In this document: piece by piece, positions 1 through 52,353 of the stretch
Layout: every line of letters starts with the position of its first letter
Numbering within the stretch: position 1 is the first letter of the stretch
IMG/VR virus record: IMGVR_UViG_3300028048_000038
Location: 288,001-352,000 of that record
DNA: 64,000 nt
Direction: 5' to 3' (one strand)
From: a virus
Taxonomy: Duplodnaviria > Caudoviricetes
Made by a program: the position numbers and the translations under genes
The notes under the pieces: generated by a model
Databases searched by the model: none
What the model was told of the DNA's origin: nothing
The model's input: the letters and a program-made list of their open reading frames with translations, nothing else

Positions 1-681
1 GCGGTTGACAGTGAATCAGTATTACAGTCCATCAGAAATAAAAATAAAGTACGCATTAGATATGATGATGGACAAGCCGATAATGCTGGGAATCCAAAAG
101 GCACACGTGTCATCATGCCAATGGCAATAGGGACAACGAAGAAAGGATATCCAGTTGTCAGAGCATATCAAGAAGGTGGTGGGTCTCGTAGAGGTGTACC
201 AAAGTGGAAATTCTTTCGTCTTGATAGAATTACTTCTTGGACTCCATTGGTGAACAAGAAATTTAATGAACCCCCATTGGGTTATAATTTCAATGGTGAT
301 AGGACAATGGGCACATTTATTGACAATGCAAAGTTCAATGATTTTGTAAGTCCATTGGATAGACAAAGAATGCAATTCAGAAATGATGTTAAGATAGGTC
401 AACAGCAAAATACGTCAAAAGGTCCAGTTGAACAGCCAAGAGTTACGCAACAATGGAAGAAAAACGTCTATACATCTCAGCCTAATAGTAAAAAATATGA
501 TATGATTAGACAGAATATAGACAATACCCCCAAAAAAAATGATGACTTCTGGCGTCTCTTTGACCTCAATGATGCTGAAAAGGCATTAACTGAGCCACAG
601 AAAGGACCGATTGATAATGGTTATGATACAGATGATGTCGATTTTGACGAAAATGATTACGCAAACAATAATAGAAGATAA
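1..681 (+). CDS. WYL-like domain protein, 5'-truncated by window edge
   Basis: Frame of ORF 115..681 is open back to base 1. IRYDD..GTRVIMPMAIG..VRAYQ..WKFFRLDRI matches the WYL signature; acidic low-complexity tail. Confidence 0.6.
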   Translation, partial: AVDSESVLQSIRNKNKVRIRYDDGQADNAGNPKGTRVIMPMAIGTTKKGYPVVRAYQEGGGSRRGVPKWKFFRLDRITSWTPLVNKKFNEPPLGYNFNGDRTMGTFIDNAKFNDFVSPLDRQRMQFRNDVKIGQQQNTSKGPVEQPRVTQQWKKNVYTSQPNSKKYDMIRQNIDNTPKKNDDFWRLFDLNDAEKALTEPQKGPIDNGYDTDDVDFDENDYANNNRR

Positions 682-1373
682 TGGCAAATTTGACTGAAGA
701 ACAAAAGAAAGTTAGATTAAATGAATCCATGTCAAGGGCTGCAAAGCTCATGAAATTGGAGGCAAATGGTACTCTTGATAAAATAGCAGCAGGACATAAG
801 GATGGTATTAATGAATCACTTAATGGTGATACATTAACTAGTGATTTGATGACAACAGCTAGGAATAGAAAGACTCAAGCACCACCTTCATTCGGTGGAC
901 AGATGGGTGAAAACGCTGCAAACGTACCAGCCGCAATCAGAGAAGCATTCATGTCCAATCCAATAGACTATGGTTCATTAGGTGGCGGTATGGATGGAGA
1001 TTTATCATTCCTTACTGAAGGTCTAGATTTAATGCAACAACCACAAACTCAACAAGTGGTGACACCTCCACAGAACATCAGACAGATTGTTAATGAGGGT
1101 GTACAACAACAATATGCACCTCAACCACAGATGCAATACACAACAGCACCTCAGATTGATTATCCAATGATTAGGACAATTGTTGAGGAAATCGTAAGAA
1201 AGTATGCTGTTTCATTGAATAAGAAGATTGTGAATGAAGGTAAAGGTAACGAAATTAATACCATTGCTTTAGGTAAAAATTTCAGATTCCTAGCCTCAGA
1301 TGGTACAATATATGAATGCGTTATGAAGAAAGTAGGTAACGTAAATGATAAAAGAAAGAGTGTTAACGGTTAA
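681..1373 (+). CDS. hypothetical protein with multiple (L/I/V)xE helical motifs, probable virion/head protein
   Basis: 230 aa; LTEE, LNES, INES, IRQIVNEG, IRTIVEEIVRK; start overlaps upstream stop; followed by a terminator. Confidence 0.55.
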   Translation: MANLTEEQKKVRLNESMSRAAKLMKLEANGTLDKIAAGHKDGINESLNGDTLTSDLMTTARNRKTQAPPSFGGQMGENAANVPAAIREAFMSNPIDYGSLGGGMDGDLSFLTEGLDLMQQPQTQQVVTPPQNIRQIVNEGVQQQYAPQPQMQYTTAPQIDYPMIRTIVEEIVRKYAVSLNKKIVNEGKGNEINTIALGKNFRFLASDGTIYECVMKKVGNVNDKRKSVNG

Positions 1374-1386
1374 CACTCTTTTTTTT
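1355..1386 (+). terminator. intrinsic terminator
   Basis: aaagagtgttaa-cgg-ttaacactcttt followed by a T run. Confidence 0.8.
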
Positions 1387-1438
1387 GCTTTATATATTGA
1401 TTTATCCCTCAAATGTTTTTATTTTTTATAAAAAAAAT

Positions 1439-1903
1439 ATGATAGAGTATTTCGATGATGGACGTGTTAAAAGCGTAAAGGGTTATGGAATAACTTGTAA
1501 TATAGATATTGACTTTGATAATCCAGACCTTGAAAAAGTAAAGACAATAATGTTGAATGACTTTTCAAGAAAGTTAATGGCAATCCACAATGAACATATG
1601 TATGCAATGCCAAATGCCTTATTTATGTATGGTATTTTCGAGAGAAGATATTATGACGATATTTTCATGTCAATAACCAAAGAAGTTAAACGTGAAGTTG
1701 TTAATTTGACTGACACTAATTATATTGCCAATTATGTTTTCGAATATTTCAAAAAGTATTATAACGGTCCAGAAGAAATGATGCCAAAATCAGCAAAGGA
1801 AATTAAACGTTGGTTCTCAGCTAGTGAGTTTCCATTCATGTGGGCGACATTGTTCAGAAATATGGATGGAAAGGTTTCTATGGGCTATATGATTACAAGA
1901 TAA
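1439..1903 (+). CDS. hypothetical protein
   Basis: ORF track 1385..1903; ATG at 1439 after an A-rich leader is the more plausible start. Confidence 0.6.
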   Translation: MIEYFDDGRVKSVKGYGITCNIDIDFDNPDLEKVKTIMLNDFSRKLMAIHNEHMYAMPNALFMYGIFERRYYDDIFMSITKEVKREVVNLTDTNYIANYVFEYFKKYYNGPEEMMPKSAKEIKRWFSASEFPFMWATLFRNMDGKVSMGYMITR

Positions 1904-1927
1904 TAAATTATTTTAATATATTAAAAT

Positions 1928-3142
1928 ATGGATAAAAAAATTAAAATGTTGGTGATACCTAGTGATAGGACTGGTGTGGGTAAGTTCCGTTCAGTAGACC
2001 CACACACTTACATTCAAGAACATTATGGTGATGAATTCGATGTGGATATTGTTTACAGTATGCCAAACGGAGACCTTGAGGCTTTCTTAAAGCAATATGA
2101 CCTTATTCATATACACAAGCAACTTGATAAGCAGTGTAAGATTATGGATATGATTAAGTTCTTGGGTATACCAGTAATAATCGATGTTGATGACCACTTT
2201 AAACTTGGAGAAGACCACCCAATGTCACTTACGGCAAAGAAGGAAAAGTGGCATGAACCAATTATCAATCACTTGAAGAAAGCTGATTATGTTACAACTA
2301 CAACTCCAATCTTTGCCAATATACTTAAGAAGTATAATAAAAATGTGGCAGTGTTCCCAAATGCCATCAATCCAAACGAGGAACAATATACTGTTCCAAA
2401 GACACCGCCTACTGACAAACTTAGAGTTGGTATCATTTGTGGTTCTTCACACTTAAAGGACTTACAGTTACTTGATGGTATTGCAAAACAAATCGATAAG
2501 GATAAGGTACAGTTTGTACTATGTGGTTTCGATACAAGAGGTAATAGAACAATCTATAACCAACAAACTGGTGAGAAAACCACGAGACCAATATTACCAG
2601 AGGAGAGTGTATGGTGCGATTATGAGAAGATTTTTACAGACAATTATAATAATGTATCACCAGAACATAAGGAATTCCTTTTGAAGTATGTTGCGAATGT
2701 TGATGACCCATTCACAAATGAGCCATATCGTAGAATGTGGACTAGGGATATTAACAAATATGCTACGCATTATGCCAATGTTGATGTACTTATAGCACCC
2801 CTAAAGGAAAACGAATTTAATAGTGTTAAATCTGAACTAAAGGAAATTGAGTGCGGATTTACTCATACTGCATTTATCGGACAGAACTTTGGCGCATACA
2901 CCATTAACCTAGCCCCAATGATTGAGAAAGGTGGTAAGATTAATGAGGAAGGTACTGCACTATTAGTTGATTCAAGAAAGAATCATAAGGATTGGGCTAA
3001 ATACATCAATAAGCTTGCTAATGATAGGGATATGCTTAAGAAGCTACAAGACAATTTGTATAACTTCGTAAAAGATAGATATTCACTTGAGACAGTTTGC
3101 AAGCAGAGAGTTGAGCTATATAAGCAAATAGCTAAGAAATAA
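1928..3142 (+). CDS. glycosyltransferase (GT-B / GT4-like)
   Basis: IIDVDDH..ADYVTTTT..VFPNAI..DVLIAPL..FNSVKSELK.IE pattern of phage GT-B enzymes. Confidence 0.8.
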   Translation: MDKKIKMLVIPSDRTGVGKFRSVDPHTYIQEHYGDEFDVDIVYSMPNGDLEAFLKQYDLIHIHKQLDKQCKIMDMIKFLGIPVIIDVDDHFKLGEDHPMSLTAKKEKWHEPIINHLKKADYVTTTTPIFANILKKYNKNVAVFPNAINPNEEQYTVPKTPPTDKLRVGIICGSSHLKDLQLLDGIAKQIDKDKVQFVLCGFDTRGNRTIYNQQTGEKTTRPILPEESVWCDYEKIFTDNYNNVSPEHKEFLLKYVANVDDPFTNEPYRRMWTRDINKYATHYANVDVLIAPLKENEFNSVKSELKEIECGFTHTAFIGQNFGAYTINLAPMIEKGGKINEEGTALLVDSRKNHKDWAKYINKLANDRDMLKKLQDNLYNFVKDRYSLETVCKQRVELYKQIAKK

Positions 3143-3145
3143 AGC

Positions 3146-3183
3146 AAAAAGAGTGGGGATTGTTCCTCACTCTTTATTTTTTT
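3146..3183. terminator. bidirectional terminator between convergent genes
   Basis: aaaaagagtgggga-ttgt-tcctcactcttt, flanked by A and T runs. Confidence 0.75.
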
Positions 3184-3556
3184 ACACATTTTCCTTAAGG
3201 TATTTGTTAATTGATTCTGTAATGGCTTTATTAATCTTACCTTCAAATTGTTTAGCCTTTTCCCAAGAAATAGTGTTATCTTCAGCATTACCTCTAGGAC
3301 TCAAAGCCTTACCAAATTCTTCTCTATCCTCTGGAAATGCTCTTCCAACTTCCTCTTGGTCTGCAAATTGTCTATCAAGACCTCTTGATATTGGATTATC
3401 TGTTCCAATGGTTGCTGCTGCACCCAAGCCAAGTGCTGCGCCAAGTCCTGCTGTCTTAAGGGCATCCTTGCCCCAACCTTCTTCAACTGTACGTCTTACA
3501 GTTTCTTCTACGATTTTATGTAAATCTGATTCTGTTAATCTTATAATCTGTGTCAT
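3182..3556 (-). CDS. small protein with N-terminal IIRLTESDLH tag, probable internal virion protein
   Basis: MTQIIRLTESDLHKIVEETVRRTVEE; Ala/Gly hydrophobic segment; C-terminal ITESINKYLKE; ATATTTATA motif 20 nt upstream. Confidence 0.6.
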   Translation of the reverse strand: MTQIIRLTESDLHKIVEETVRRTVEEGWGKDALKTAGLGAALGLGAAATIGTDNPISRGLDRQFADQEEVGRAFPEDREEFGKALSPRGNAEDNTISWEKAKQFEGKINKAITESINKYLKENV

Positions 3557-3586
3557 AATTAAATATGTATTTTAATATAAATATCA

Positions 3587-5062: not shown

Positions 5063-5114
5063 TTATATATAAATATTATGAATTTCAAAATAATCTTTAA
5101 ATAATTAATAGAAA

Positions 5115-5654
5115 TTATGTTGTAAATTCTGAAGAATCAACACTATAGCCTTCCCACGTAACCCATAAACTAGTTGTACCCCATAAGCTATGGGCATTAG
5201 CATATCCATTGTTAATTGCATTGAGAACAAAATATTCAGAGTGTTCTGGCGTAACTTGTACCATAATATAGTCTCCTTTTTTGGCATCGACATTAAGTTC
5301 TTTTAATGTCTCTGGATAAACACCAATCGTTATCTTTCCTGGCTTCATATAAGTGCCAAGTTGTTTTGACTTATCATATGATTTTAATTCTGGTTCTTCA
5401 ATCTTATATGTGCATGGAATTTCAATTGGTGTCTTGAATGCCACGTTATCTGTATCTGTTTCCCCATACACAGCATCTGTCTGTGTTTGCGAAGCATCTA
5501 CTTGATAGAGCACAACAGTTTGTCCCATATCTTGTTCGATATAGTCCTTTCCTATTTCTCTCTCCAATGCAAACATTTCCGCATCGTAGAATAGACTGTT
5601 TCTATTAATAGGAACACGTCTTACATTATTTGTATTAAACTTTAAACTAGCCAC
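5115..5654 (-). CDS. putative neck/head-closure protein (T4 gp14-like)
   Basis: IEQDMGQTVVLYQVD..DAVYGE..F..P.EI..KKGDYI resembles head-closure proteins; GTG start. Confidence 0.55.
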   Translation of the reverse strand: MASLKFNTNNVRRVPINRNSLFYDAEMFALEREIGKDYIEQDMGQTVVLYQVDASQTQTDAVYGETDTDNVAFKTPIEIPCTYKIEEPELKSYDKSKQLGTYMKPGKITIGVYPETLKELNVDAKKGDYIMVQVTPEHSEYFVLNAINNGYANAHSLWGTTSLWVTWEGYSVDSSEFTT

Positions 5655-6396
5655 GATAATATCCCTCCCAATTTTCTAAGTTCATTCCAGCATCGAGAAT
5701 TACAATCATTGGTTTGCCATCTCTATTCACGATGCCATAATTCTCTGGTTTAGTTAAATCACCAATTTGTGTGTTCATGATGAACTCCTTAAGTTGTTTC
5801 AACCAAGGGTTTTTCCTTATATATTCTTCTATTTCCTTATGATAATAACCTTCGCCAATAGTATAATTTGTCTCAAGATAGCATACTATATCATATACGT
5901 CATAAGGAACTTCATTATAACTTCCTTTTGGATTTTCAAAGTAATTAATATATTCAGAACCCATTTGATTATAATACCTATAATAGAATGGTATATCTAT
6001 AATCTTTTCAAAATCAATGTCTTGTGCTGGTACAACATTCTCACAAATTACATATGAAAAATTCTCATCATTTCCGAATATTCTAACCAACAATGGAGAT
6101 TGTGTGTCTTCATATAGTTGGCACTCAAGACGATTCTGAGCTTTACCAGCTTCATATCTGCCATTCGCCAACTTTAGTACTAGGTTATCACTCAACATGA
6201 AGACACATCTAGAAGAGCCTTGCGCAACTGGTTCTCCTAACCATTTCCTACAATATTCAAATTGTAACTTTCCATTATATTCCTCATCAGAAAAAGCGTC
6301 ATTTCCAAGCACAGATAGTTCGTCAAATGAGAAACCTTCCCTATATGCTTCAAATAATCTTTTCTTTTGAGATTCGTTTATTTTAACTATTTTCAT
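5647..6396 (-). CDS. protein-kinase-fold enzyme with N-terminal INES tag
   Basis: Gly-loop QGSSRCVF, VLKLA lysine, QNRLE helix-C Glu, GDLTKPENYG catalytic loop, ILDAG (DFG equivalent). Confidence 0.7.
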   Translation of the reverse strand: MKIVKINESQKKRLFEAYREGFSFDELSVLGNDAFSDEEYNGKLQFEYCRKWLGEPVAQGSSRCVFMLSDNLVLKLANGRYEAGKAQNRLECQLYEDTQSPLLVRIFGNDENFSYVICENVVPAQDIDFEKIIDIPFYYRYYNQMGSEYINYFENPKGSYNEVPYDVYDIVCYLETNYTIGEGYYHKEIEEYIRKNPWLKQLKEFIMNTQIGDLTKPENYGIVNRDGKPMIVILDAGMNLENWEGYYRG

Positions 6397-6500
6397 TATA
6401 AAATATAAATATTTCTTATAAATATCTACATTTTTTCATTTAAAATACTTGATTTTTTCAAAAATATTTTTATATTTTATCAAAGATAAAATATAAAAAT

Positions 6501-8643: not shown

Positions 8644-9927
8644 CATACTCTCCTCGCTAAAGCAAGGAGATTCTTGACTCAAACGCAACCGCCTCGAAAC
8701 CAAGTGGTTCGATGGTCTTACCATTGCTCGTCAATTCGTAGATGCCCCTACGAAGTATCATTTCAGCAGCATGAACGTCACGGTCATGGACTTGCCCACA
8801 ATGTGGGCACACCCAACTCCTATCGTTCAAACTGAGATTGTCATTCTTATAACCACAGTCACATAACTTGCTGCTTGGAAACCACTTGTCAATCTTATGC
8901 ACAGTGCAGCCATACTTGGTTGCAACTTGTTCCAAGATGCTGACAAACTGTGCGTGAGCAAGGTCATTCATCTTGCAACCCCATAAGCGAGACATTCCAC
9001 TGAGGCACAAGACCTCAATGAATATACTGTCATAACGCTTGCATAACTCATGAGCAAGCTTCCATTGGAAGTCATTACGTTTGTTGGCAACTGACTCATA
9101 GAGTCTGCACAAGGAAAGCCTTGCTTGCTCCTTGTGATTGCTGCCACTGATACAACGAGAATGCTTCTCAGAGGCTTTCCTAATCCTTCTGAGGTCTTTC
9201 TTAAGGAACTGTGGGTTGTTTACCTTCTCACCATTTGAAAGGGTCAGATACGTCTTAAGACCAAAGTCAATGCCAATGCTTGCACCATCGTGTGTCTTAG
9301 CATAGCTCTTAGGACTTGCGTCTGTTATGACGTAAATGTACCATTCATTAAGGTGGGAACGCTTAACTCTCACTTGTTTAACCTTACCATCGTAAGGACG
9401 AGACAAGGAGAACTTGTAATCCTTCTTGCAAGAGTTAACGTGGAACACGTTACCACACAAGGAGAAGCCTCCTTGTTTATAACAGAAGGAAGCGAAGTCA
9501 GCAGTTCTTTTGAACTTTGGAGGTCTCTTTGCAAGGTGTTTGAAGAACCTTGCATATGCAGCATCAAGGCGTTGCAAGACCTCTTGTGCTGACTGCGAAT
9601 GAAGGTATGTGCGCTTGATGCGCTTTGCAAAATGCCTCTGCATTGCAGCGCAAGAAACGTATTTACCGTAGAGTCGGTAGTATCGTTTTTGTAGCGCAAG
9701 AGCGTGATTCCATACAAAGCAAGCCTCAGACAACATATTGTCCAAGTGACTTGTGTTTTTAGTTCTGTATTTGTATGAAATCATAGTCTTCAATATTTGT
9801 TGTTACAAAGTAACAATAAATATTGCGATGAATTGAAAAGTTATTAAAAATTAGAAAAAAAAAAATAAATAATTTTTCCCAATTCATCCCACGCCTAAAG
9901 GCAGTGGGCTTTCTTGGGAATTTTTTC
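8640..9927 (-). mobile_element. IS200/IS605-family tnpB-only (IS1341-type) insertion sequence
   Basis: Minus strand left end TTAC|gaaaaaattcccaagAAAG-cccactgcctttaggcgtggg; right end GAAT-ctccttgctttagcgaggag-agtatg-TCAA. Visibly higher GC than the flanks; no tnpA. Confidence 0.88.
8657..9793 (-). CDS. tnpB: RNA-guided endonuclease TnpB
   Basis: RuvC-I IGIDFGLK, RuvC-II FIE, Zn ribbon CDCG..CPHCG, RuvC-III DRDVHAA; all three acidic residues present. Confidence 0.93.
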   Translation of the reverse strand: MKTMISYKYRTKNTSHLDNMLSEACFVWNHALALQKRYYRLYGKYVSCAAMQRHFAKRIKRTYLHSQSAQEVLQRLDAAYARFFKHLAKRPPKFKRTADFASFCYKQGGFSLCGNVFHVNSCKKDYKFSLSRPYDGKVKQVRVKRSHLNEWYIYVITDASPKSYAKTHDGASIGIDFGLKTYLTLSNGEKVNNPQFLKKDLRRIRKASEKHSRCISGSNHKEQARLSLCRLYESVANKRNDFQWKLAHELCKRYDSIFIEVLCLSGMSRLWGCKMNDLAHAQFVSILEQVATKYGCTVHKIDKWFPSSKLCDCGYKNDNLSLNDRSWVCPHCGQVHDRDVHAAEMILRRGIYELTSNGKTIEPLGFEAVAFESRISLL

Positions 9928-10413: not shown

Positions 10414-10668
10414 ATGGTTGAACCAAAATTTCAAAAGGGAGATTATATAATCAGTAGAAATAGCGGTAATATGGGTATCATAAAAGGTATTACAAAAAAA
10501 GGATACTACCAATTCGAGGCATATTATGGTGCAATGTTTGATGAATTAAAAGACGTTAAGGATAAGAACTATGATTTACAAATTAATTACCAGAAATTCT
10601 ATGAACTATGTACGGAAGATGAAAAGAAAAAACTCAATGAGATAATAAAAGAAAAAGGAGAGAATTAG
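10414..10668 (+). CDS. hypothetical protein (possible SH3/KOW-like fold)
   Basis: KFQKGDYI..GIIKGI start typical of small beta-barrel phage proteins. Confidence 0.55.
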   Translation: MVEPKFQKGDYIISRNSGNMGIIKGITKKGYYQFEAYYGAMFDELKDVKDKNYDLQINYQKFYELCTEDEKKKLNEIIKEKGEN

Positions 10669-10680
10669 TTTCTCTCCTTT
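10652..10680. terminator. bidirectional terminator
   Basis: aaaggagagaa-ttagt-ttctctccttt over the convergent stop codons. Confidence 0.7.
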
Positions 10681-11060
10681 ATTTGCCTTATTTTATCTTT
10701 TTCAGAATTGAAACCTTTGGCAAATCTATCTTGCATCTTTAAATTTCCATTTCTTTTTTCTTTGGCATAATTTGACACATTATAATAATCATTTATGTTT
10801 CCACTTGTTGATTTTCTTGCAGCCAATCTGCCCAATAGACGTTGACCATCTTCAGTGTCTCCTATTTCATTTAATACTTTATTAACAGTTTCTTTTACAA
10901 TATTATGAAGGTCAGATTCTGTTAATCTGATTATTCCCTTTTTCATATTCTTTGACTCCATTTGTATGTTATTTTCATTCTGTTCCTTTGAAGCTTGATA
11001 CATTTTTCCAAACCCCATAGCTTGCGCCAATTCAAACCCATTCTTAAAAGGTAGTGCCAT
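10665..11060 (-). CDS. small protein with internal IIRLTESDLH tag
   Basis: IIRLTESDLHNIVKETVNKVLNEIG, near-identical to the N-terminus of 3182..3556. Confidence 0.65.
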   Translation of the reverse strand: MALPFKNGFELAQAMGFGKMYQASKEQNENNIQMESKNMKKGIIRLTESDLHNIVKETVNKVLNEIGDTEDGQRLLGRLAARKSTSGNINDYYNVSNYAKEKRNGNLKMQDRFAKGFNSEKDKIRQIKERN

Positions 11061-11062
11061 AT

Positions 11063-12466
11063 TTATTCATTGTTTAATTGTTTCATTATTCCTTCGTACA
11101 TGAAGTCTGCAACCTTCATGATTGAATCAAATACACTTGCACAGTTGTTTACATTCATTCCCCAATTTGCAAGGTAATTAAAATGTTCTTGTTGATTTTC
11201 ATAGCCAAATCCACTTAATACAATCCAAGCGCATAATTCAGCCTCTTGTTCGATAATGTCAGTACCTCTTAACATACTGCCGCCACGATAGAATTTCTTA
11301 AGGGTTGGATTTGTTGTACTGACAACCTCCCAGTGCATTATTTGGTGTGCTGTTTCATGAATTACTGTACTAAGTAAACCATGATTCTTCTTATCATCTA
11401 CAATTTTTACTTTTCCACTAATGCTAGCCGAACCACGTGAGCCACCCATTGTATCAACTGGTACAAACTCATAACTCTTAACACCAATTGATTTACCAAA
11501 CTCTATACAAGCATTGATTAATATTCTTTCTTTATTGGTTTCGTCACTGTCAGCATCATACCATTTGAAATTATTCTCTGGAAACTCTTCAGCGCCTTCT
11601 CCTTTAATCAAGTCTGAGATGTCATATGCAATATATTCCTTAAAACCTCCTTGTGGGTCTGGATACTTCGTTTCCCTATCCAATCTACGTTTCTGCGATG
11701 GAGTCAATTCACTGATTGCCTTTACCCCCTCTTTTTCAAGGAATCTTCTTACAACCTCATCATATTGAGCACCAAACAACTTCTTAAATGAAGCTGGCAT
11801 AGCCAATACGATTGGTGTTGCGTCTGGTTTTGGCGTATAGCCCATTTCTCTCCATTCACCCTTTGAGCGTACATCAGTAGCATTTCCTTTCTGTAAGAAG
11901 ATAAGAATTGTATTTAACAATGATAATTGATGTCCTCTATGCTTCGACATCTCAATTCTAAACCTCGTCAATTCTGCAAGTGCTTCCATTGTTTCCCTAC
12001 TACCAACACCTTGAGCAAGTTTCTTCTTAAATTCTTCAGCATTTGCGATAATACCATTACCATCAATACGTACTTGGTCACTTGCTTGTGCTTGCATGAT
12101 AATATCTTTCAACTGTTCAATTGATGCCAATACTTGTTCAATTGTTCTGTTGTTTCCACCCTCTGGTGGTGTTTCTTGACTTCCTATCTCTTCAGCAAAC
12201 TTTTTTATCAAAGGATAGACTTCTTGTTCGCTGCCATCCCAAATAATCCAACCCCAAGCTTGTGGTACACCCTTAACGTTTCTGATATATCTATTATATG
12301 GCAAGTATTCCATGCCATATTTTTTCATCAACTCTTTATTATTAAACGTGTTGTCAGTTGATAAATTTGGGTCTACATAAACCAATTTAAAACCTTTTCC
12401 ATTCTTGGTCTTTAATAACTCGTTTGCTGCTAATTCGTAATATTCTCTTAAAAGATTTTTTCTCAT
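11063..12466 (-). CDS. ArdC-like ssDNA-binding domain plus HExxH metallopeptidase (polyvalent-protein type)
   Basis: LSLLNTILIFLQ..ATDVRSKGEWREMGY (ArdC-N-like) and VIHETAHQIMH..EQEAELCAW..YLANW; N-terminal LLRE. Confidence 0.72.
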   Translation of the reverse strand: MRKNLLREYYELAANELLKTKNGKGFKLVYVDPNLSTDNTFNNKELMKKYGMEYLPYNRYIRNVKGVPQAWGWIIWDGSEQEVYPLIKKFAEEIGSQETPPEGGNNRTIEQVLASIEQLKDIIMQAQASDQVRIDGNGIIANAEEFKKKLAQGVGSRETMEALAELTRFRIEMSKHRGHQLSLLNTILIFLQKGNATDVRSKGEWREMGYTPKPDATPIVLAMPASFKKLFGAQYDEVVRRFLEKEGVKAISELTPSQKRRLDRETKYPDPQGGFKEYIAYDISDLIKGEGAEEFPENNFKWYDADSDETNKERILINACIEFGKSIGVKSYEFVPVDTMGGSRGSASISGKVKIVDDKKNHGLLSTVIHETAHQIMHWEVVSTTNPTLKKFYRGGSMLRGTDIIEQEAELCAWIVLSGFGYENQQEHFNYLANWGMNVNNCASVFDSIMKVADFMYEGIMKQLNNE

Positions 12467-12857: not shown

Positions 12858-12922
12858 TGTATATTTCTTATTTCTTATAAATATTACCATTTAACAAATA
12901 TTTATTGTAAAAAATCAAGATT

Positions 12923-16683: not shown

Positions 16684-17493
16684 ATGGGAAAAAAGAAAAA
16701 CTTGAAGGAAAGCATCACTGAATTGGAAATGGAATTCATTGAGCAAAAGATGAAAGGAGACTGTGCTCTCAATTATCTTACATCGGAAGGGTTATGTTCT
16801 AAATTAAAAACACTTGGTTATAAAATAGATATTAAGTGTAAAAACGAAAAACAAAAAGAGTTCTTGAAATTACTTAAAAACAAAAATTACCAAATATGCT
16901 TTGGAGTTGGCTCACCAGGTACTGGAAAATCCTATCTCTCACTTGCATATGCACTTAAGGAGTTAAAGGACGGTAATTATTCAAACATCATTATGATGAT
17001 ACCTACGGCTCCAGCAGGAGGATTAGACCTAAACCTAGGCTACCTTAAAGGTGATTTAGAAACCAAGATACAACCATATCTTGAGTGTGATGAACAGACA
17101 ATCACAAAGATTTTAAGGAATAGTGGAAATGCTGACCCGTACATGACAGCACAATCCTTAATAAGTAATAACTACATAAAATACGAATTCATTAATTTTG
17201 CATTGGGTAAAACATTCGATAATGCCTTAATATGTGTCAATGAATGTGAACAATATACCAAGGAAAATCTAAGATTGATACTTACAAGATTGGGTGAAAA
17301 TAGTAAAATGATTTTAACTGGTGATTCTCTACAAACAAACCGTAGAGATATTGTTACAAAAAAATCAGAAAGTGGACTACTATACGCAATAGAACATATA
17401 GGTAAATTAGATGAGGTTGGAATCACAGAGTTTACAAGAGAAGACATAGTAAGAAATCCATTAATTACAAAAATACTAGACAATTGGGATTAA
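16684..17493 (+). CDS. phoH: PhoH-family ATPase
   Basis: GSPGTGKS, LGYLKGDLETKIQPY, GKTFDNA..NECEQ, LTRLGENSKMILTGD..Q, DIVRNPLI. Confidence 0.92.
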   Translation: MGKKKNLKESITELEMEFIEQKMKGDCALNYLTSEGLCSKLKTLGYKIDIKCKNEKQKEFLKLLKNKNYQICFGVGSPGTGKSYLSLAYALKELKDGNYSNIIMMIPTAPAGGLDLNLGYLKGDLETKIQPYLECDEQTITKILRNSGNADPYMTAQSLISNNYIKYEFINFALGKTFDNALICVNECEQYTKENLRLILTRLGENSKMILTGDSLQTNRRDIVTKKSESGLLYAIEHIGKLDEVGITEFTREDIVRNPLITKILDNWD

Positions 17494-17529: not shown

Positions 17530-17556
17530 GATATTTATAGAAAATATTGTTTTATA

Positions 17557-18735
17557 ATGGATTGGAACGAATTTTCACAAAGATTAAATGACAAAATGGA
17601 TAAAACATTTAAGCCAACCGTAGAATGGATGACAGCCAAATATACTGAAATGAATGATGAGTTGTTTGGTGGTGAATTGGGCGATTGTAGTTTTGCCATC
17701 TTTACTACTGGTCGTGGTTCTGAAGGTGGTACTCTTGGTTGGTTTAAGATAACTGGACGCAACATCTATATAAATAGATACAGCCGCAAAATGTATAAGA
17801 ATAACGGTTGGGAAAAGATAGACATTGATAGGAAGAACTTTGTTGGTTTATGCCAGCCTAGAATAGAACTGAATGGTAACTATAGCGGAACTGAGCATTC
17901 TTTCTTAGCTACATTGGTGCATGAAATGTGCCACTACTACACCTATATGTACGGCTATGCCCCAAAACAAGGGCATGGAAGAGAGTTCAAGGAGATTGGC
18001 TATATCGTATCACAGCGTTCAAATGGAATGTTTACCATACAAAGACTTGCGAGTGCCGAACAGATGACTGAAATGGAGTTAAACGATACAATGAAGGCTA
18101 AAAGGGCTAAAAGGTTAGCAAACAAAAAATCATCTGTAACCGCCATTATCGTTTTCACAAAAGAAGGAAAAGTCAAACTCACAATTACTTCCAATCAATC
18201 GCTAGTAAACATGATTTCAACTAGTGAGAAAGAAAGAGGTGATAATGTTGTTACAACAAACGATGCTGAAATTATAGAGTATTTATTCTCCAAGGGATAC
18301 AGAAAAAATATGAGAACATGGAGATATTGGAGTCTTGAAGATAAACCTTGGCTTGGTGAGCTGAAGAGTATGTTGCCAGAGGTTAGTGGGGAAACATTAG
18401 GAATAAGAAGACCAGCAGCGCAACAAGTTCCACCTAAACATACAAAAATGATATTCTCAATCAAAACAAGTAACGGAGTATTCGAGACTGAGGTAACAAC
18501 TCCAAACGATTTAAAAAGGAAACTTAGAGAAAGATTTCCAAAACTTAATGATGAAGCAATAGAAAGATTGTTCAATAATAATGCTAACTACAGAATGGTT
18601 GAAAATATAATGAATACAAAAACAATTATTAAGGAAGTTATTGAAGAATTCATGAGTAATGAGATGAATAATGATGCAATTGCAATAGACCCAGATATGA
18701 ACTTGGGGTTACAGTCACCGTTAGAAGGTGAATAA
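17557..18735 (+). CDS. SprT-like zinc metalloprotease with C-terminal extension
   Basis: NDELFGGEL..TLVHEMCH..GHGREFK; C-terminal IIKEVIEEFMSNE. Confidence 0.82.
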   Translation: MDWNEFSQRLNDKMDKTFKPTVEWMTAKYTEMNDELFGGELGDCSFAIFTTGRGSEGGTLGWFKITGRNIYINRYSRKMYKNNGWEKIDIDRKNFVGLCQPRIELNGNYSGTEHSFLATLVHEMCHYYTYMYGYAPKQGHGREFKEIGYIVSQRSNGMFTIQRLASAEQMTEMELNDTMKAKRAKRLANKKSSVTAIIVFTKEGKVKLTITSNQSLVNMISTSEKERGDNVVTTNDAEIIEYLFSKGYRKNMRTWRYWSLEDKPWLGELKSMLPEVSGETLGIRRPAAQQVPPKHTKMIFSIKTSNGVFETEVTTPNDLKRKLRERFPKLNDEAIERLFNNNANYRMVENIMNTKTIIKEVIEEFMSNEMNNDAIAIDPDMNLGLQSPLEGE

Positions 18736-35777: not shown

Positions 35778-36023
35778 TTAAATTGCGTTAGAAGAATCAA
35801 CTAGGTTTTTAATGGCATTAAGGTGCTCATTTATCTGTATAACAATGCTGTTTGGTTCTTGTCCCAATCTATTGCACATTATCATATGGTCTCTAACAAC
35901 TTGAATTGCATCATCAATACTATATCCAATCTCATTGAATAAGTTTGATAAATCATCATTACCATATCCAATTTCTTTGATTAGCTTTTTATATGCTTCC
36001 TCTTTTAAATTAATCGTTTTCAT
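35778..36023 (-). CDS. small protein with N-terminal LKEE/LIKE tag
   Basis: MKTINLKEEAYKKLIKEIG. Confidence 0.55.
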   Translation of the reverse strand: MKTINLKEEAYKKLIKEIGYGNDDLSNLFNEIGYSIDDAIQVVRDHMIMCNRLGQEPNSIVIQINEHLNAIKNLVDSSNAI

Positions 36024-36889
36024 TAGAAATTGAACAATTTATCAAGTGTCTGGACATCATCATCGTCAATCTTGAAGAATGTCTTTGCGATGTCATCAGA
36101 TGGGTTATCTACATCATCGTTTGTGATTGTATATTCCTTGGTTGTAGGCTCTGCATTGTCTGAGTATGCCTCATACCCACCTTGCTTTGCCTTTTCATCC
36201 CAATACTCGTTTGGTTTAATGTTAAATGGATATGAATCTAGTGAACGCAAATTAAGCTTCTCAGTTTGAGTTGGATTTCTCTTCTCAAACTCAGCCTTTA
36301 AAGCTTCAATCTCACTATTGTTACTGTCAACCTTAGACAAAAGGTTATTGATAGTATCAATCAACGATGTAATTCTTGTATCGACCTTTGACAAATCTCT
36401 TCCGATATGGTTCTGCTTAACATTAAGTTTATCTTGTGCCTTTGTCAAACCATCGATGTCAATTGTCTCACCATCGTCCTCACTCATATCGCCACTAGCA
36501 TCAGCCAAAGGGTCTTCTCCACCCATGTTTGTACCTCCAATTGGGTCTGCCATTGGGTCAACTCCTGCATTTGGGTCTGCACCACCCATAGGGTCTGCGT
36601 CACCCATTGCATTTGGGTCTCCTACCATAGCGTTAGGGCCTTGAGGCATTCCTCCACCCATTGCATTTGGGTCTTGAGGCATACCGCCCCCCATTTGGTC
36701 AGCACCACCGCCCATCATTGGGTCTTGACCACCCATTGCATTTGGGTCTTGATTTGGGTCAGCACCAGCTTCCTCCAAGTCTTCCTCTGGGAACTGTGTT
36801 GGTATATATGCTTCGCTGAGACGCATAAAATGCTTATGTGCCTCATACAAATTATTTTCCTTAAGATACTTAACATTAGTCTTTGCCAT
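36023..36889 (-). CDS. acidic low-complexity plus coiled-coil protein, possible prohead scaffold/core protein
   Basis: YLKENNLYE..RLSE, DPNAMGG repeats, coiled coil, PTQTEKLNLRSLDSYPF. Confidence 0.55.
   Translation of the reverse strand: MAKTNVKYLKENNLYEAHKHFMRLSEAYIPTQFPEEDLEEAGADPNQDPNAMGGQDPMMGGGADQMGGGMPQDPNAMGGGMPQGPNAMVGDPNAMGDADPMGGADPNAGVDPMADPIGGTNMGGEDPLADASGDMSEDDGETIDIDGLTKAQDKLNVKQNHIGRDLSKVDTRITSLIDTINNLLSKVDSNNSEIEALKAEFEKRNPTQTEKLNLRSLDSYPFNIKPNEYWDEKAKQGGYEAYSDNAEPTTKEYTITNDDVDNPSDDIAKTFFKIDDDDVQTLDKLFNF
36530..36765 (-). repeat. degenerate coding tandem repeat (DPNAMGG/ADPMGG)
   Basis: cccattgcatttgggtc recurs three times, plus variants. Confidence 0.8.
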
Positions 36890-36896: not shown

Positions 36897-37142
36897 TCAA
36901 TCGTTCAAAAGTTCCTTATTATCCTCAGTCAAAATGGTCTTAGAACTCTCAGTTCTCTCGATAAGACCCTTGTCCTTCTTTACTCTCTTCACATGTGCTG
37001 ATGGTTCTGTACCATTAAGTACACTCTGTGCCATTGCTATCTTTTCGCTTGTAGTCATAACTTGCTTATTCTCTTCAATCTTATTTTCCACCCTCTTCTG
37101 AGGCTTCATACTGTTTATGTGTTTTATAATAAACTTTCCCAT
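36897..37142 (-). CDS. small hypothetical late protein
   Basis: GLIERTESSKTILTEDNKELLND; ATATTTATA motif 20 nt upstream. Confidence 0.6.
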   Translation of the reverse strand: MGKFIIKHINSMKPQKRVENKIEENKQVMTTSEKIAMAQSVLNGTEPSAHVKRVKKDKGLIERTESSKTILTEDNKELLND

Positions 37143-44591: not shown

Positions 44592-44601
44592 CTATTCTTG
44601 T

Positions 44602-44919: not shown

Positions 44920-44924
44920 AAAAA

Positions 44925-47900: not shown

Positions 47901-48368
47901 TGTATATGTTCCAGGATTACCACTATCCAAATCGCCTCTATATCCAATCTTCTTATTGTTTGTGACACCATCGTTTGACTCTGAATAGTGTATTGATGTG
48001 CCACCACCGTCACTTGATATTGATGTGGATTCGAATTTCATGTTAGGAAACCATCTATCCAATAACATAAGAGGGTCATGATATGGGTCTGCAAATCTAA
48101 CACTTGGTACTTCTTTATAGAATGTAAACTTAGGACAACCTTCGTTTATTGTACTAGGCACACTTACACCTTGTTGGAAATTCCTTCTCACATGGTCAAA
48201 TATGAATGGATAGTCTTTTCCCAACAAACTAATAGGCTCACGTCCAAGTGCTTGCACAATAAACATGATGTCATCATAAGAAGCAGTCATTCCAATCGTT
48301 CTAGATATGAAATCACTGTTTGTCAATAAATCTGTAGCTGCATTCTTTATAGAATCACCTATACTCAT
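44925..48368 (-). CDS. baseplate/tail-tube-initiator protein with inserted OmpA-C-like domain
   Basis: WFPPYDLTFNEDVSVNW..IGRGE.LYTYTNTER.GNLSF; GHAS..NNDLAKNRA..WRSASV (OmpA-like); PPVCVLRVGDFY..WDL..PMFAKVSITF. Confidence 0.7.
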   Translation of the reverse strand: MSIGDSIKNAATDLLTNSDFISRTIGMTASYDDIMFIVQALGREPISLLGKDYPFIFDHVRRNFQQGVSVPSTINEGCPKFTFYKEVPSVRFADPYHDPLMLLDRWFPNMKFESTSISSDGGGTSIHYSESNDGVTNNKKIGYRGDLDSGNPGTYTNSIYSYGPELSTCDLIKKTNDNFNHGKYKTLVARFHTNSDDSKSSTNSTQTAISKTYGMSHGRNLLKITPTTENGYDNPYCRVWTYHHQYNQIQRLIRPFSYVDSAENLEKNETSLGSSVGFRTIGDEDFDGGSRRLDKYGVLNYKNGFVNIAPTAKIKDYFDSKQDSEDSISIKRCMFSIENLAWRDDKAKVKEYEQQGLSAEQRGPLGGRIMWFPPYDLTFNEDVSVNWNNNQFIGRGEGLYTYTNTERRGNLSFTLIIDHPSVIDYWTGHKRNGMKNNGRELAEGNSGGVDNKYNQENTLLRFFAGCDILTATPQTFYKAKEEPKVEEKKDPTPKLEILAPDETPTRTPKKIQVLLFYPNNYSGKDDGGTVNPVWYLMAGVGTQKYVDIDDEGKGTKNAIDIPTTINFLSASTNTGYEMNGSKGISIVDEQIAWNVPDASKHSTIVMSYADKTSKERKAQYLTDENGNTITVTYTYPTTVLNDEEREISSSTTKNYKLAKIIGSQAMGLGSAYGNNLTGEDHLWYRKRYYYRVDKAYENQDFSNSDSYLDTQSFKLNSTGYASATAVTEFQLEKESLYSFSDLFAALETSNKVVPNTDKSKELKKILTDKNRYEITNLKYFGHASYQGYKSSNNDLAKNRANTLKKWLESFDQFKGVQSEEPIIKNQREKPVTNVGGNSELNTKLWRSASVIIEYNELSVSKAVETLAKQNIDKVEIPNGITSNKLNNLSVSGLKVSPYSVLSDPKNDMMNYRFDPKSGKFIYKEPQPSDTAETSVVQRYDNEGEFFELLDKEAPFLHHLISEKIRYFDPAFHSISPEGFNSRLTFLQQCTRQGSTIENGNPNQITAYNLAFGRPPVCVLRVGDFYNTKIIINSLNIQYDNTQWDLNPEGIGVMPMFAKVSITFTFLGGSDLAGPIARLQNAVSFNYYANAGVYDNRAEMVEYDPNGSGRPVKFKGYVYPNLTKKGTVDVSEVYGDNGQKITKNGNTK

Positions 48369-48407
48369 ATTATAAAAAATAATCTATATATTGTTTTATT
48401 TAAACGC

Positions 48408-50993
48408 TTAATGTTTTATCTTACCATACATACTTGTTTGTGACGGATAGCCATTAACTGTTGCCAAGTCATTGTTTAACATACCTCCATTGATGTCCCT
48501 ATTGATAGACTCTCTAATCATATTTTTAATCTGAGTCATAAATGCATAGTCATTAAGTAAGTCACGACCATTGAGAGACTTAGAGTAATTTCCCGCTTCA
48601 AGACGTAATGTTCCATTTATATTGATATTGAAGTCCTTAACTGTTACTGTGTTGCCATTTACATTTGATGTCTCAGTTCTATTTGGTTTGTAAATATATT
48701 CAGCCTCACCAAGAGAGTTCTTTGGCTTAACTGGTGTTTCACCAAATACAGCATTGAACTGTTGTGGAGTGATTACAGCCTCGCCACTATTTGCCAATAT
48801 TGGCACTTTATCACCACTGTATGAGTTTCCTCCAATAACACCACCTTCAGCATGTTTTTCGCTACTGCTAAACATATCACCAATGAGTTTTGTTGGAGAC
48901 CAATCTTTACCAAATAATTCGCCTATGCCTCTAACCATCCAAGATATTGGATTATTATCAACAAGCCATTTAACGCCATTTAGAACTGTTTTCCCAAAGC
49001 TCTTCAAGCCATCCAATATTGGGTCCCAATATTTACCAATGAATTCACCAGCAAATTTTCCAACTGCTCCACCAATCATGCCGCCAAGAGGTCCAAAGAA
49101 AAATGTGCCTAAAACAGTACCAACTCCTTGTCCAACAGCGCCACCAACTTCTGAATTCCTATCAATTCTAGCTTGCTCCAATGCCTTTGTTTTATCAGCT
49201 TGAGACATGTTAGAATTGTTAATTTCATTTATTCTATCATTGTATTTACCTTGAGCACTAAATCCTTGATATGCTGATAATCCAAGTCCTAACGCAGCAC
49301 CTCCAACATTAGCTAATTTTTGTCCACTAGATAGCCACTTAAAGCCACTAAAAGGTGCTTTTAACATTGATGCAAATCTTCCACTTCCCCCCATTCGAGA
49401 GTCTTGATAGCCAATTCGCAATGCATCAAATGAGTCTTTTCCAGCATTCCAAAGCCATTTACCGCCACGTCCAATACCATTTGCCGCACCACTAGCTGCT
49501 TTTCCACCAAGTCCTTTAGTTCCTCCAAATAAAGTGTTACCTATACTAAGGATTTTACTACCTATTATTGCTCCAAGTGTAACTGGCCAGTTTTCAATTA
49601 ACCATTTTGAAACCTTTACAATGCCACTAGCAATTGTTTTAAGGGTATCCCTATTATTCTTAATCCAATTATATATTTCCTTGGCAGATTTACCGAATTC
49701 TTGTGCAAGTGGTAACAACTTAGCTTTCGCTGCTTCTCCAAACTTCTTCAAGTCTCCTTGGAATGTTGGGAACATTCCTTCAATGAATTTACCAAACATT
49801 GCCATGATGGAATTCTTGATACCAGTTAATATCTCATTGATTGATGAAAGACTTCTAGCATTTTCTTCCATGATGTCACGGTCAGACATGCCTTGGTATT
49901 TCATCATTTCCTCAAGAACAGCTTTATCAATAGTTCCACCACTACTTAAGTCAACTTCCTTACCTCCAGTTGTTGTAAACATAACTTTACCATTTGCAAC
50001 ATTTGACTTATTAATTAAGAAGTCTTGTTGTTCTTTGGTAAGTCCATTCATTATGCTTGAACTTATATTTCTTTCCTTATATGCGTTTGATGCTTGTTTC
50101 TTTGCGCTACCAACCAATTCATCTGGATTCAAATTCATTGCCTTTGCAGCATTCCTCAACATATCCATCATCATTGGGTCAACTGTTGCGATTCCCTTTT
50201 GAGCATCGAACTTGGCAGCACCTTGAGCCATTCCTATAAGTCTCTTTTGGAATGCTTCTGGGTCAGCATTTGCTTCGTATGCCATATCAAGTGGATTTCC
50301 ACCAAGCATTGCGAATTGTCCACCAAGCATATTCAATTTCGCTGATGCTTGTATTGCATCGTCAATTTCCATGAATGCATTGGCTGCTGATTCAACAGAG
50401 TTAAGGCTTAATCCAACCTTCTCAGCTTGCATTGCCATACGAGTAAGTCCTTCAATACCAGTACGGAATGAAAGTTTGTTTGCCATGCTCAAGTTATTAG
50501 CAATCTTTTCACTAACCTTCTGAGCATTAAGACCACTCTTTGCAGCAGTAGCATAAGCCTTAGACACAGCACCTTGAACGGTATCGAGTTGTCCACCCAT
50601 ACCATTCATCATCTGTTCAGTGAACTTGGTTACTGTACTAGAACCAACAAGCTTGTTTAACTGTAGGAAACCTTCAGCTTGAGACTCATTGAGCATCAAC
50701 TGTCTGCTTGTGGCTATGGATATGTTTCTCTGTAACTCCTTTACTTGTTCGGCAGCGACACCATACTTCATCGCAAGCTTTTCGGTACGGTCTGTTAATA
50801 CCTCCGTATAAGCTTGCGCTTCCTTGGCGTTCATACCCATTTCACGTGCAAATGCAATACCTTCTTGATGGAACTGCATAGCACTATTAGTACCACTCTT
50901 TATGAGGGTATTAAGGTATGAAAAGGCACTTGCAAGTGTACCACGTATAATACCAGCTGTGGCTATTAAAGTCTGTGCTAATAATTTATTCAT
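48408..50993 (-). CDS. tape measure protein
   Basis: Ala/Gly-rich helical 861 aa with GG.IGG repeats and HAEGGVI..ANSGEAVI; lies between chaperones and baseplate genes. Confidence 0.8.
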   Translation of the reverse strand: MNKLLAQTLIATAGIIRGTLASAFSYLNTLIKSGTNSAMQFHQEGIAFAREMGMNAKEAQAYTEVLTDRTEKLAMKYGVAAEQVKELQRNISIATSRQLMLNESQAEGFLQLNKLVGSSTVTKFTEQMMNGMGGQLDTVQGAVSKAYATAAKSGLNAQKVSEKIANNLSMANKLSFRTGIEGLTRMAMQAEKVGLSLNSVESAANAFMEIDDAIQASAKLNMLGGQFAMLGGNPLDMAYEANADPEAFQKRLIGMAQGAAKFDAQKGIATVDPMMMDMLRNAAKAMNLNPDELVGSAKKQASNAYKERNISSSIMNGLTKEQQDFLINKSNVANGKVMFTTTGGKEVDLSSGGTIDKAVLEEMMKYQGMSDRDIMEENARSLSSINEILTGIKNSIMAMFGKFIEGMFPTFQGDLKKFGEAAKAKLLPLAQEFGKSAKEIYNWIKNNRDTLKTIASGIVKVSKWLIENWPVTLGAIIGSKILSIGNTLFGGTKGLGGKAASGAANGIGRGGKWLWNAGKDSFDALRIGYQDSRMGGSGRFASMLKAPFSGFKWLSSGQKLANVGGAALGLGLSAYQGFSAQGKYNDRINEINNSNMSQADKTKALEQARIDRNSEVGGAVGQGVGTVLGTFFFGPLGGMIGGAVGKFAGEFIGKYWDPILDGLKSFGKTVLNGVKWLVDNNPISWMVRGIGELFGKDWSPTKLIGDMFSSSEKHAEGGVIGGNSYSGDKVPILANSGEAVITPQQFNAVFGETPVKPKNSLGEAEYIYKPNRTETSNVNGNTVTVKDFNININGTLRLEAGNYSKSLNGRDLLNDYAFMTQIKNMIRESINRDINGGMLNNDLATVNGYPSQTSMYGKIKH

Positions 50994-51058
50994 TTAAGAT
51001 ATATACCTATTTAAATTATCTATAAATATGATATTTATCATTTTTTAACATTTATTTC

Positions 51059-51089
51059 TTTGTCAATTCAAAATAATTTCGTATCTTTG
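51059..51089 (+). promoter_or_regulatory. Bacteroidota primary-sigma promoter
   Basis: TTTG-N19-TATCTTTG. Confidence 0.8.
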
Positions 51090-51114
51090 CATCACAATTA
51101 AAAAAATAAATGAC

Positions 51115-51264
51115 ATGAGATTTTACGAAGATTGGGGAGGTTTTATTTGGGAGTACAATTCATTTGGTGAGTTTATCAAGTGCTTCATTGCAAGAACACT
51201 CAGTGCAATTGTTACATTTGGGCTTATGCTTGTAGTACTTTATTTAATAGGTAAATACTGTTGA
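51115..51264 (+). CDS. small membrane protein (49 aa)
   Basis: Hand translation MRFYEDWGGFIWEYNSFGEFIKCFIARTLSAIVTFGLMLVVLYLIGKYC*. Confidence 0.55.
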   Translation: MRFYEDWGGFIWEYNSFGEFIKCFIARTLSAIVTFGLMLVVLYLIGKYC

Positions 51265-51269
51265 TTATC

Positions 51270-51686
51270 ATGGAGATTACTAGAGATACGATTTATATAT
51301 CTTTTCATCTTTATAATTTTGAATACTTTGGCAATAAGTTGCCAGCACCGAATTTCAAGGTTAGACATTCATACAGAACATTGGGATTTTTCTCTTGCGA
51401 GTATGACGAGGATGGATATATGTTCAATCAAACCATTGAGATAAGTGATAGTTATGATTACACTGAGTCTCAGTTAAGGGACATTCTTGTACACGAAATG
51501 ATTCATTATTATCTCGCTTATATGGGAATCGACCCACAATGTAGTCATGGAACTGAATTCAAGAGGATGACTAATGATTTTAATAGAAAATATGGCATGA
51601 ATATTACATCAACGATTGACCTCACACCATATGAAATTAAAAAGGGAAATTCAAAGTTAATGTTCACACTTTCAACGCTTTTCTGA
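51270..51686 (+). CDS. SprT-like zinc metalloprotease
   Basis: NFEYFGNKLP..ILVHEMIH..SHGTEFK. Confidence 0.85.
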   Translation: MEITRDTIYISFHLYNFEYFGNKLPAPNFKVRHSYRTLGFFSCEYDEDGYMFNQTIEISDSYDYTESQLRDILVHEMIHYYLAYMGIDPQCSHGTEFKRMTNDFNRKYGMNITSTIDLTPYEIKKGNSKLMFTLSTLF

Positions 51687-51714
51687 TATTTATATTGGAA
51701 AAGCGTTTTTGTTT

Positions 51715-52353
51715 ATGAATAATATCTATAAAAGAATAATAAGAGAAGAAATAAACAGATTAATACTTTCTGAAGCAATAGATGTTTCTCCATTATCAAA
51801 ATACATTCAACCATTGCAGAAATGTGTTTCTGACTTAAGAAACATGGGGTATTCGAATAATAAGGAAGTTGATGCATTCTTAAAGGACATATGTGAATAT
51901 ATCCTTCAAGTTATCTTCGGAATTGACAGATGTGTTAAGGCAAATAGTTTGAATGAGGATTTCAGACTATCTGACTATGGTGTGCAGTATCCAGCGGAAT
52001 TGGGTGGCAATCTATGGAATGACTTTGAGAATGGTCTTTATAAGGGTGCTAATTGGGCTAGAAGAAATCTATACAAGAGGGGATATGTTGGCAATGGTGT
52101 AAACGGTAAATCAAATGGTAACACAAACGGCAATACCAATACTAATAACCCCAATAATGTGCCAAGTGTTAAGTTAGCAGATTCACTTAGAAACTTATCA
52201 CAGATATCGCTTAGATATCAAGACCTAACAAATAAACACCCAAATGAAATGTCCCAATATAGCAACATAATATATGATGCATTAGGAAATTATATAAGCA
52301 ACTTAAATAGAGAATATAATCAGATAAAAGCAAACGCCCAAGGAAACCCTTGA
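51715..52353 (+). CDS. hypothetical protein with N-terminal IIREE/LSE tag
   Basis: MNNIYKRIIREEINRLILSEA; GATATTTATA 21 nt upstream. Confidence 0.6.
   Translation: MNNIYKRIIREEINRLILSEAIDVSPLSKYIQPLQKCVSDLRNMGYSNNKEVDAFLKDICEYILQVIFGIDRCVKANSLNEDFRLSDYGVQYPAELGGNLWNDFENGLYKGANWARRNLYKRGYVGNGVNGKSNGNTNGNTNTNNPNNVPSVKLADSLRNLSQISLRYQDLTNKHPNEMSQYSNIIYDALGNYISNLNREYNQIKANAQGNP

Follow-up and report, generated by a model that had tools for sequence, protein, structure and literature searches.

A portable leader peptide on unrelated late proteins of an uncultured jumbo myophage, and its possible role as a capsid-targeting propeptide

Two small late genes in a 64,000-nucleotide stretch of viral DNA (the window, bases 288001-352000 of the single 409,537-bp record IMGVR_UViG_3300028048_000038) raise the question of why proteins with unrelated bodies should share a near-identical block of 24 residues. 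A first-pass annotation of the window had proposed that about ten of its proteins carry such a tag, that the tag is a portable address comparable to the capsid-targeting sequence (CTS) of phage T4, and that a gp21-type protease clips it once diverse enzymes have been loaded into the head. The idea of a clipped, portable address fits every indirect test that we ran, whereas the proteins and the cargo listed for it were mostly wrong. The record has inverted terminal repeats and a completeness rating of 100%, and it belongs to a jumbo myophage. Inside the window are genes for tape-measure-like giant proteins and a tail sheath of 1113 aa; just past its end are those for a major capsid protein of T4 type, a protease for head maturation, a portal, and a large terminase. 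A megablast search with 24 kb of the window found no match among GenBank phages. The two proteins and their tags are as follows, with coordinates given in the window unless marked as genome.

3182-3556, (-): small late protein of 124 aa; its N-terminus has a class-A tag, its C-terminus a tag-like helix, and it also has a hydrophobic stretch rich in Gly and Ala; homologues P0001-P0009.
3479-3550, (-): class-A tag of this protein, residues 3-26, ending in V-E-E; translation checked, alignment A1.
10665-11060, (-): 131-aa protein with a 41-residue N-terminal extension, a class-A tag (residues 42-65), and an unrelated body; third gene of a unit that also holds an ArdC-like gene.
10866-10937, (-): class-A tag of this protein, an internal copy after M-K-K, ending in L-N-E; alignment A1.

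Each of the ten window proteins named in the first-pass annotation was scored against the tag profile and against 500 shuffles of itself. The shared block of these two proteins was borne out, as they scored 48.9 bits (3182-3556) and 55.0 bits (10665-11060), values that 0 of 500 shuffles reached and with no shuffle exceeding 10 bits. The whole-genome profile scan that had been suggested as a check revealed a family larger than the one first seen, only two members of which lie in the window: a pattern search followed by an iterated profile over all six-frame open reading frames of the genome identified 12 proteins with 13 copies in 409,537 bp, and an independent second search returned the same 13 copies. 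The class-A tag comprises 24 residues (26-28 with its Met stub): a short I-I-R-L strand is followed by an amphipathic helix of 18 residues, which T-E-S-D caps at its start and [IV]-L-x-E closes. Among 394 unique tags, conservation amounts to 97% at E7, 94% at E24, 93% at L10, 86% at V18, and 81% at both S17 and L5, and it drops abruptly past Glu24, after which no residue exceeds 23%. The motif [ILVM]-x-E occupies positions 22-24 in 369 of these 394 tags, and another 10 retain it with their end displaced by one residue. An equally conserved L-T-E ends at position 7. One copy, at genome 358495-358740, ends in Asp.

Beyond this genome, 153 tag matches were found in 79 loci of other viral contigs, nearly all of them 2-3 residues past a Met, and a profile search of 1.84 billion representative proteins yielded 5,780 clusters at E<=0.001, including 197 at E<=1e-10. 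The 144 unique bodies behind the tags fall into 69 BLAST clusters; they have a median length of 105 aa and are disorder-prone, with Q, G, A, P, D, and N over-represented and I, L, F, and C scarce. Only two tag-less homologues of tagged bodies turned up, a yield limited by the shortness of the fetched loci. The tag is likewise joined to clearly different domains, with DUF3008 ahead of it, a Dps-like domain far upstream, or other folds behind it. A 711-aa protein of this phage (genome 20535-22670 (-), locus L003) combines an N-terminal region resembling Dps with two internal tags that have diverged, and relatives of 339-676 aa occur elsewhere. Annotation resources were quite silent on all of this: there was no Pfam domain in the 120 best longer tagged proteins, no Pfam family over the tag in 12 tagged proteins, no named look-alike of the tag in the ESM Atlas, and nothing but unrelated papers in a literature string search for the tag motif, while in PHROGs only phrog_26015 (function unknown) overlaps a single tag copy. 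The tag is real and widespread, and we found no description of it in papers or family libraries.

The 3182-3556 protein also has a second, tag-like helix at its C-terminal end. Its AlphaFold2 model places helices at residues 9-27 and 98-123 and is otherwise of low confidence (predicted local distance difference test, pLDDT, of 43), such that the family model supports only terminal helices and a disordered middle. The longer variants P0001 and P0003 (181 and 200 aa) part from 3182-3556, and from each other, exactly at the tag-like C-terminal motif, and in these alignments the helix looks as if it were a module junction.

The class-A tag is not the only leader of this phage. In an unbiased comparison covering all N-termini, 25 pairs with unrelated bodies reached a score of >=40 versus 3 among internal segments. 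The largest N-terminal cluster linked the tag proteins to a second group, of which 5647-6396 is a member, and a profile built from that group (class B) had 14 matches, which in this phage and its relatives cover five or more unrelated bodies. The class-B leader is shorter but has the same strand-and-helix layout as the class-A tag. Three features of the window belong here.

5647-6396, (-): 249-aa protein with a class-B leader and a protein-kinase-like body (class-B profile, AlphaFold2 model).
6349-6396, (-): 16-residue class-B leader of this protein; residues 6-8 are I-N-E, residues 14-16 are L-F-E, and an Ala comes next.
35778-36023, (-): 81-aa protein with a marginal leader-like N-terminus, in the N-terminal similarity cluster; possibly a degenerate member.

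The first-pass annotation had listed 5647-6396 as a looser version of the tag. It does not match the class-A tag, but it does have a real and different leader (residues 1-16), scoring 35.5 bits with the class-B profile. Classes A and B have little in common beyond a similar opening (hydrophobic-x-hydrophobic-T/N-E-S) and two [IL]-x-E motifs. The class-B leader is almost invariant, being present on 116 of 120 database homologues of 5647-6396, a family of more than 120 clusters in which the leader is among the most conserved parts. In an alignment of 35 family members (mean column identity of 46%), I6 and E16 are invariant and E8, L14, and A17 are conserved at >=90%; the leader columns M1, K2, S9, Q10, and Y18 are equally conserved. 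The same 35 homologues hold an invariant catalytic set of K75, E91, D213, N219, D235, and G237 (Lys, Glu, Asp...Asn, Asp-x-Gly). In the AlphaFold2 model, the body has a pLDDT of 89.5, while residues 1-20 stay under 60 (41-58 for the leader) and are not packed on the body. All of the best structural matches are kinase-like, the top one being a modest match to PRPK (Z of 7.8, root-mean-square deviation of 4.3 over 153 residues), and a Pfam scan of the protein gave no match. The 5647-6396 protein is plausibly a leader-bearing kinase-like enzyme. The other looser version that gave any signal, 35778-36023, is marginal only, with 4.3-4.5 bits to the class-A and class-B profiles and 0-1 of 500 shuffles reaching these scores. 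A short-leader pattern, which was chosen after the data were seen, remained enriched at N-termini once the class A and B genes were set aside (12 of 493 versus 0.8% per internal window, p = 8e-4), no more than a hint that further leader classes beyond A and B may exist in the genome.

If these leaders serve the phage head, their genes should be found among the late genes. The position of the motif ATATTTAT peaks 20-30 nt upstream of start codons, and it precedes the genes for the capsid, a 492-aa protein in the scaffold position, the protease, the portal, the terminase, and the tail sheath. Its extended form ATATTTAT(A), with examples in the window at 3577-3584, 17531-17538, and 51686-51693, is probably a late promoter and contains the reverse complement of the T4 late promoter TATAAATA. 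Ahead of the leader genes of the window, the motif occurs as follows.

3577-3584, (-): ATATTTAT motif, 28 nt upstream of the 3182-3556 start codon.
6405-6425, (-): two ATATTTAT motifs (6405-6412 and 6418-6425), upstream of 5647-6396.
12877-12884, (-): ATATTTAT motif heading the three-gene unit 12806-10665 (-), 71 nt upstream of its first start.

Enrichment of leader genes behind the late-type motif, a check suggested in the first pass, was strong: ATATTTAT heads the units of 13 of the 15 class A and B genes, compared with 121 of the 542 others (Fisher p = 3.8e-7). A unit was counted as motif-led when the motif lies <=70 nt upstream, and the unit of 10665-11060 was scored as negative solely because its motif is 71 nt away. 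The accompanying statement that most of the listed genes stand behind ATATTTATA holds in part, namely for the true tag genes, through the motifs given above. Several other endonuclease-like genes also stand behind the late-type motif.

A cleavable head address also calls for a matching protease, and the genome encodes one shortly after the end of the window.

Genome 352613-354631: T4-type major capsid protein (Pfam profile match, PF07068, 213 bits).
Genome 356354-357055: S77 prohead protease, 233 aa (Pfam profile match, PF03420, 82 bits).

A bona fide substrate for such a protease is the capsid protein, in which a conserved [LI]-x-E stands directly before an Ala (residue 60/61). The motif reads I-Y-E, L-S-E, or L-K-E across six genomes and lies 19 residues ahead of a conserved R-R-V motif; by comparison with T4 gp23, this is where a T4-type maturation cut is expected. 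The PF03420 protease was found in all seven complete tag-bearing genomes (this phage and six others); fragments vary, as expected. In six of the seven complete genomes, the protease gene has one or more tag genes no farther than 3 kb away (chance p = 2.5e-4), and the proximity is still apparent at p = 6e-3 when three near-identical genomes are counted once, leaving five lineages. In this genome, three tag genes (358084-359135) are located between the protease and the portal, the interval where the small T4 genes 67 and 68 of the prohead core are situated. The prohead protease gene and the first of these tag genes are separated by an inserted gene for an HNH homing endonuclease (genome 357096-358109 (+), L127:5096-6109). 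In the tag-bearing relatives G004, G005, and G008, the S77 domain is found in much longer open frames (380-609 aa) compared with 233 aa here.

Overall, the tag exists, is portable over at least 69 unrelated bodies, is probably late-regulated, ends in a protease motif, and clusters with the protease and portal genes. The interpretation that we favor, and to which we would give somewhat better than an even chance, is that the class-A tag is an enlarged T4-style capsid-targeting propeptide. Both the class-A and class-B leaders can be read as capsid-targeting propeptides of an uncultured, Prevotella/Segatella-associated clade of jumbo myophages with T4-type heads. From these data, we infer a sequence of docking, packaging, cleavage, and ejection. 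Tagged proteins would be made late in infection, together with the head proteins, and the tag would dock them on the prohead core or the inner shell as the shell closes around the core. The S77 (gp21-type) prohead protease would then cut after Glu24, and perhaps also after the L-T-E at position 7, which would free the body inside the head, from where it may exit with the DNA at the next infection.

The host side of this proposal comes from a degenerate DNA pattern that was searched in one genome per prokaryote species. The tag was found in many contigs from metagenome-assembled genomes of rumen Prevotella and Bacteroidales, which are probably binned phage DNA, as well as in a single chromosomal gene in each of two cultured strains.

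L114:6932-7195, (+): chromosomal tagged gene of the cultured strain Segatella bryantii DSM 11371.
L118:5795-6823, (-): chromosomal tagged gene of the cultured strain Prevotella sp. MA2016.

The chromosomal copies are a clue to the host group and possibly represent a captured phage gene. The Prevotella sp. MA2016 gene adjoins a transposase-like gene and a small gene pair.

Several observations weigh against a capsid-targeting propeptide. No S77 protease was found in either Segatella bryantii DSM 11371 or Prevotella sp. MA2016, and their single tagged genes show that such a gene can persist without a head to enter. Two or three tag copies are present in many database matches, and some copies lie inside the protein or right at its C-terminus, none of which a simple N-terminal propeptide needs. 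The tag, with or without its Met stub, exceeds the 10-20-residue sequences of T4 in length. The polar-face positions H11, K15, E16, and S17 are conserved too, so another specific interaction is possible, and a motif as short as [ILVM]-x-E can arise from an amphipathic helix alone. Among the complete genomes, G003 has no tag gene near its protease. A tblastn search with one tagged protein against 50,697 GenBank phage records gave nothing at E<=1, leaving no cultured model at hand.

Some of these same points are what an alternative role would predict, in which the helix is a docking or oligomerization module for a partner other than the capsid interior (a bundle among small late proteins, another part of the virion, or a host protein) and the terminal Glu is structural. 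Conservation of the entire helix, polar positions included, the internal, C-terminal, and multiple copies, and the lone copies in bacterial chromosomes without an S77 protease would all suit such a module, as would the hydrophobic positions 10, 13/14, 17/18, and 21/22, which fit the pattern of an amphipathic helix. It would leave unexplained why conservation is lost abruptly at exactly the residue past Glu24, why [ILVM]-x-E is kept even when the end moves by one residue, why classes A and B are so little alike outside their opening and two [IL]-x-E motifs, and why the tag genes cluster beside the protease and portal genes. We consider this the best of the alternatives, albeit an unlikely one.

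The internal copies bear upon a second alternative, namely that there is no portable module and the tagged proteins are simply one fast-evolving paralogous family in which the N-terminus alone is still recognizable and has no addressing role. Among 158 internal copies, a Met 2-4 residues upstream is kept in 27% and an E-S-K/R junction motif is present in 23%. With such proportions, a general upstream cut site ahead of internal tags, which we had considered, was dropped. The retained Met is what gene fusion predicts and therefore argues against plain paralogy, as do the N-terminal, internal, and C-terminal placements of the tag, its union with clearly different domains (DUF3008, Dps-like, and other folds), and the longer 3182-3556 variants that diverge exactly at the tag-like motif. 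Paralogy would have in its favor that the bodies are short and of low complexity, so that their homology could fade below BLAST detection, and that several tag genes stand in tandem. On balance, we regard it as quite improbable.

Far less still can be said for the first-pass proposal in its full form, in which some ten window proteins, including an ArdC-like metallopeptidase (11063-12466) and a SprT-like protein (17557-18735), are tagged, loaded, and injected as enzymes. Parts of it are sound: the SprT-like protein is confirmed by Pfam (PF10263), the ArdC-like protein has a weak anti-restriction match (its only one) and shares an operon with the truly tagged 10665-11060, and both genes lie in ATATTTAT-led units. 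Neither protein beats its own shuffles with either leader profile, however, and the same applies to the wider list. For 681-1373, 11063-12466, 17557-18735, 36023-36889, 36897-37142, and 51715-52353, the best score was <= -0.3 bits or there was no match, with 10 to 500 of 500 shuffles reaching it, and all six proteins were also absent at E<=10 from the genome-wide tag search. The supposed ten are therefore reduced to two class-A proteins, one class-B protein, and one marginal case. Enzyme cargo survives to the extent that the kinase-like 5647-6396 has a leader, though one of class B, while the typical cargo is small, of low complexity, and devoid of Pfam domains (0 of the 120 best longer tagged proteins). 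We consider the full form very improbable. Weaker yet, and scarcely credible, is conservation at the level of the nucleic acid (a translation-start element, a small RNA target, or a recombination site), which we rejected upon codon analysis: the 13 genome copies are just 55% identical in DNA, internal and C-terminal copies exist, and identical residues share a codon in 44% of pairs versus the 39% expected from codon usage, and because codon identity at conserved residues is so near this expectation, selection acts on the tag peptide and not on the DNA.

Two other gene arrangements in the window should be mentioned. The SprT-like metalloprotease gene (17557-18735 (+)) is preceded by a late-type motif and adjoins a PhoH-like ATPase gene (16684-17493 (+)). 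Separately, a TnpB-type gene at 8657-9643 (-) encodes OrfB_IS605 and a Cas12f1-like TNB domain within a slightly GC-richer stretch.

In its broadest form, the capsid-targeting interpretation would make the tag a sequence-defined 'zip code' of an uncultured Prevotella-associated jumbo phage clade, loading thousands of small proteins into heads, some as tag-body-tag-body polyproteins, together with at least one kinase-like enzyme; for this wider claim, we would stop a little short of an even chance. The head cargo and injected proteins of giant phages are known for a handful of cultured models. If the capsid-targeting interpretation is true, a simple profile search would reveal the virion cargo of never-cultured phages along with the proteins that they are likely to inject, and sequence alone would suffice to predict which proteins a large group of rumen and gut phages package, amounting to 5,780 protein clusters that are almost all unannotated. 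T4 internal proteins include anti-restriction factors, so the tagged set would be a natural place to seek new anti-defense proteins. A defined 24-residue tag and its matching protease would likewise be a tool for packaging foreign proteins, and the chromosomal copies make Segatella bryantii and Prevotella sp. MA2016 a lead to hosts that can be cultured and in which the idea could be tested.

Among known systems, one parallel is found in the encapsulins, in which a short portable cargo-loading peptide directs unrelated cargo into an HK97-fold shell. The likeness is one of principle only. Shell binding of the tag is hypothetical; encapsulin peptides mostly lie at the C-terminus, stay on the cargo, and have sequences unrelated to that of the tag. 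Another parallel is found in the phiKZ-like giant phages, where head and ejection proteins have long N-terminal propeptides and the proteases (phiKZ gp175 and SPN3US gp245) clip many head-loaded proteins after Glu (PMC5694885, PMC9026906). The SPN3US paralogues gp53 and gp54 keep identical N-termini while the rest diverges, and a single propeptide in such phages can hold several cut sites, both of which are reminiscent of the tag. However, these proteases prefer S/A/G-x-E, and the propeptides often exceed 100 residues and have no single common sequence, whereas this phage has head genes of T4 type and a tag with one short common sequence.

The closest parallel is the T4 CTS. It is carried by IPI, IPII, IPIII, and Alt and removed by gp21 (Mullaney and Black 1996, as cited in PMC9026906, PMC3012670, and PMC5694885), which cuts after L/I-x-E (PMC9026906). 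The first 10 residues of IPIII suffice for targeting, and the targeting sequence is the sole conserved part of the otherwise diverse internal proteins; a propeptide may also contain more than one cut site, and both ends of Alt are trimmed (PMC9026906, PMC3012670, PMC5694885). An Asp at the last CTS position blocks cutting but not targeting (PMC9026906), a result that the Asp-ending copy of this phage recalls. The tag has no detectable sequence similarity to the T4 CTS, although a 10-residue peptide is too short for a homology test. It differs from the T4 CTS in its near invariance over thousands of protein clusters, in its two candidate cut sites (after positions 7 and 24), in its frequent internal, repeated, and C-terminal copies, in the coexistence of at least two leader classes within one phage, and in being known from sequence alone. 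Class A, with its 24 residues, is also outside of the T4 range of 10-20 residues, while class B, with 16, is inside it. What the two systems have in common is a short conserved N-terminal peptide that is found on unrelated proteins and ends in hydrophobic-x-Glu, in agreement with the gp21 rule, a gp21-family (S77) protease encoded together with a gp23-family capsid protein, and a scattered set of genes, some of which lie between those for the portal and the protease.

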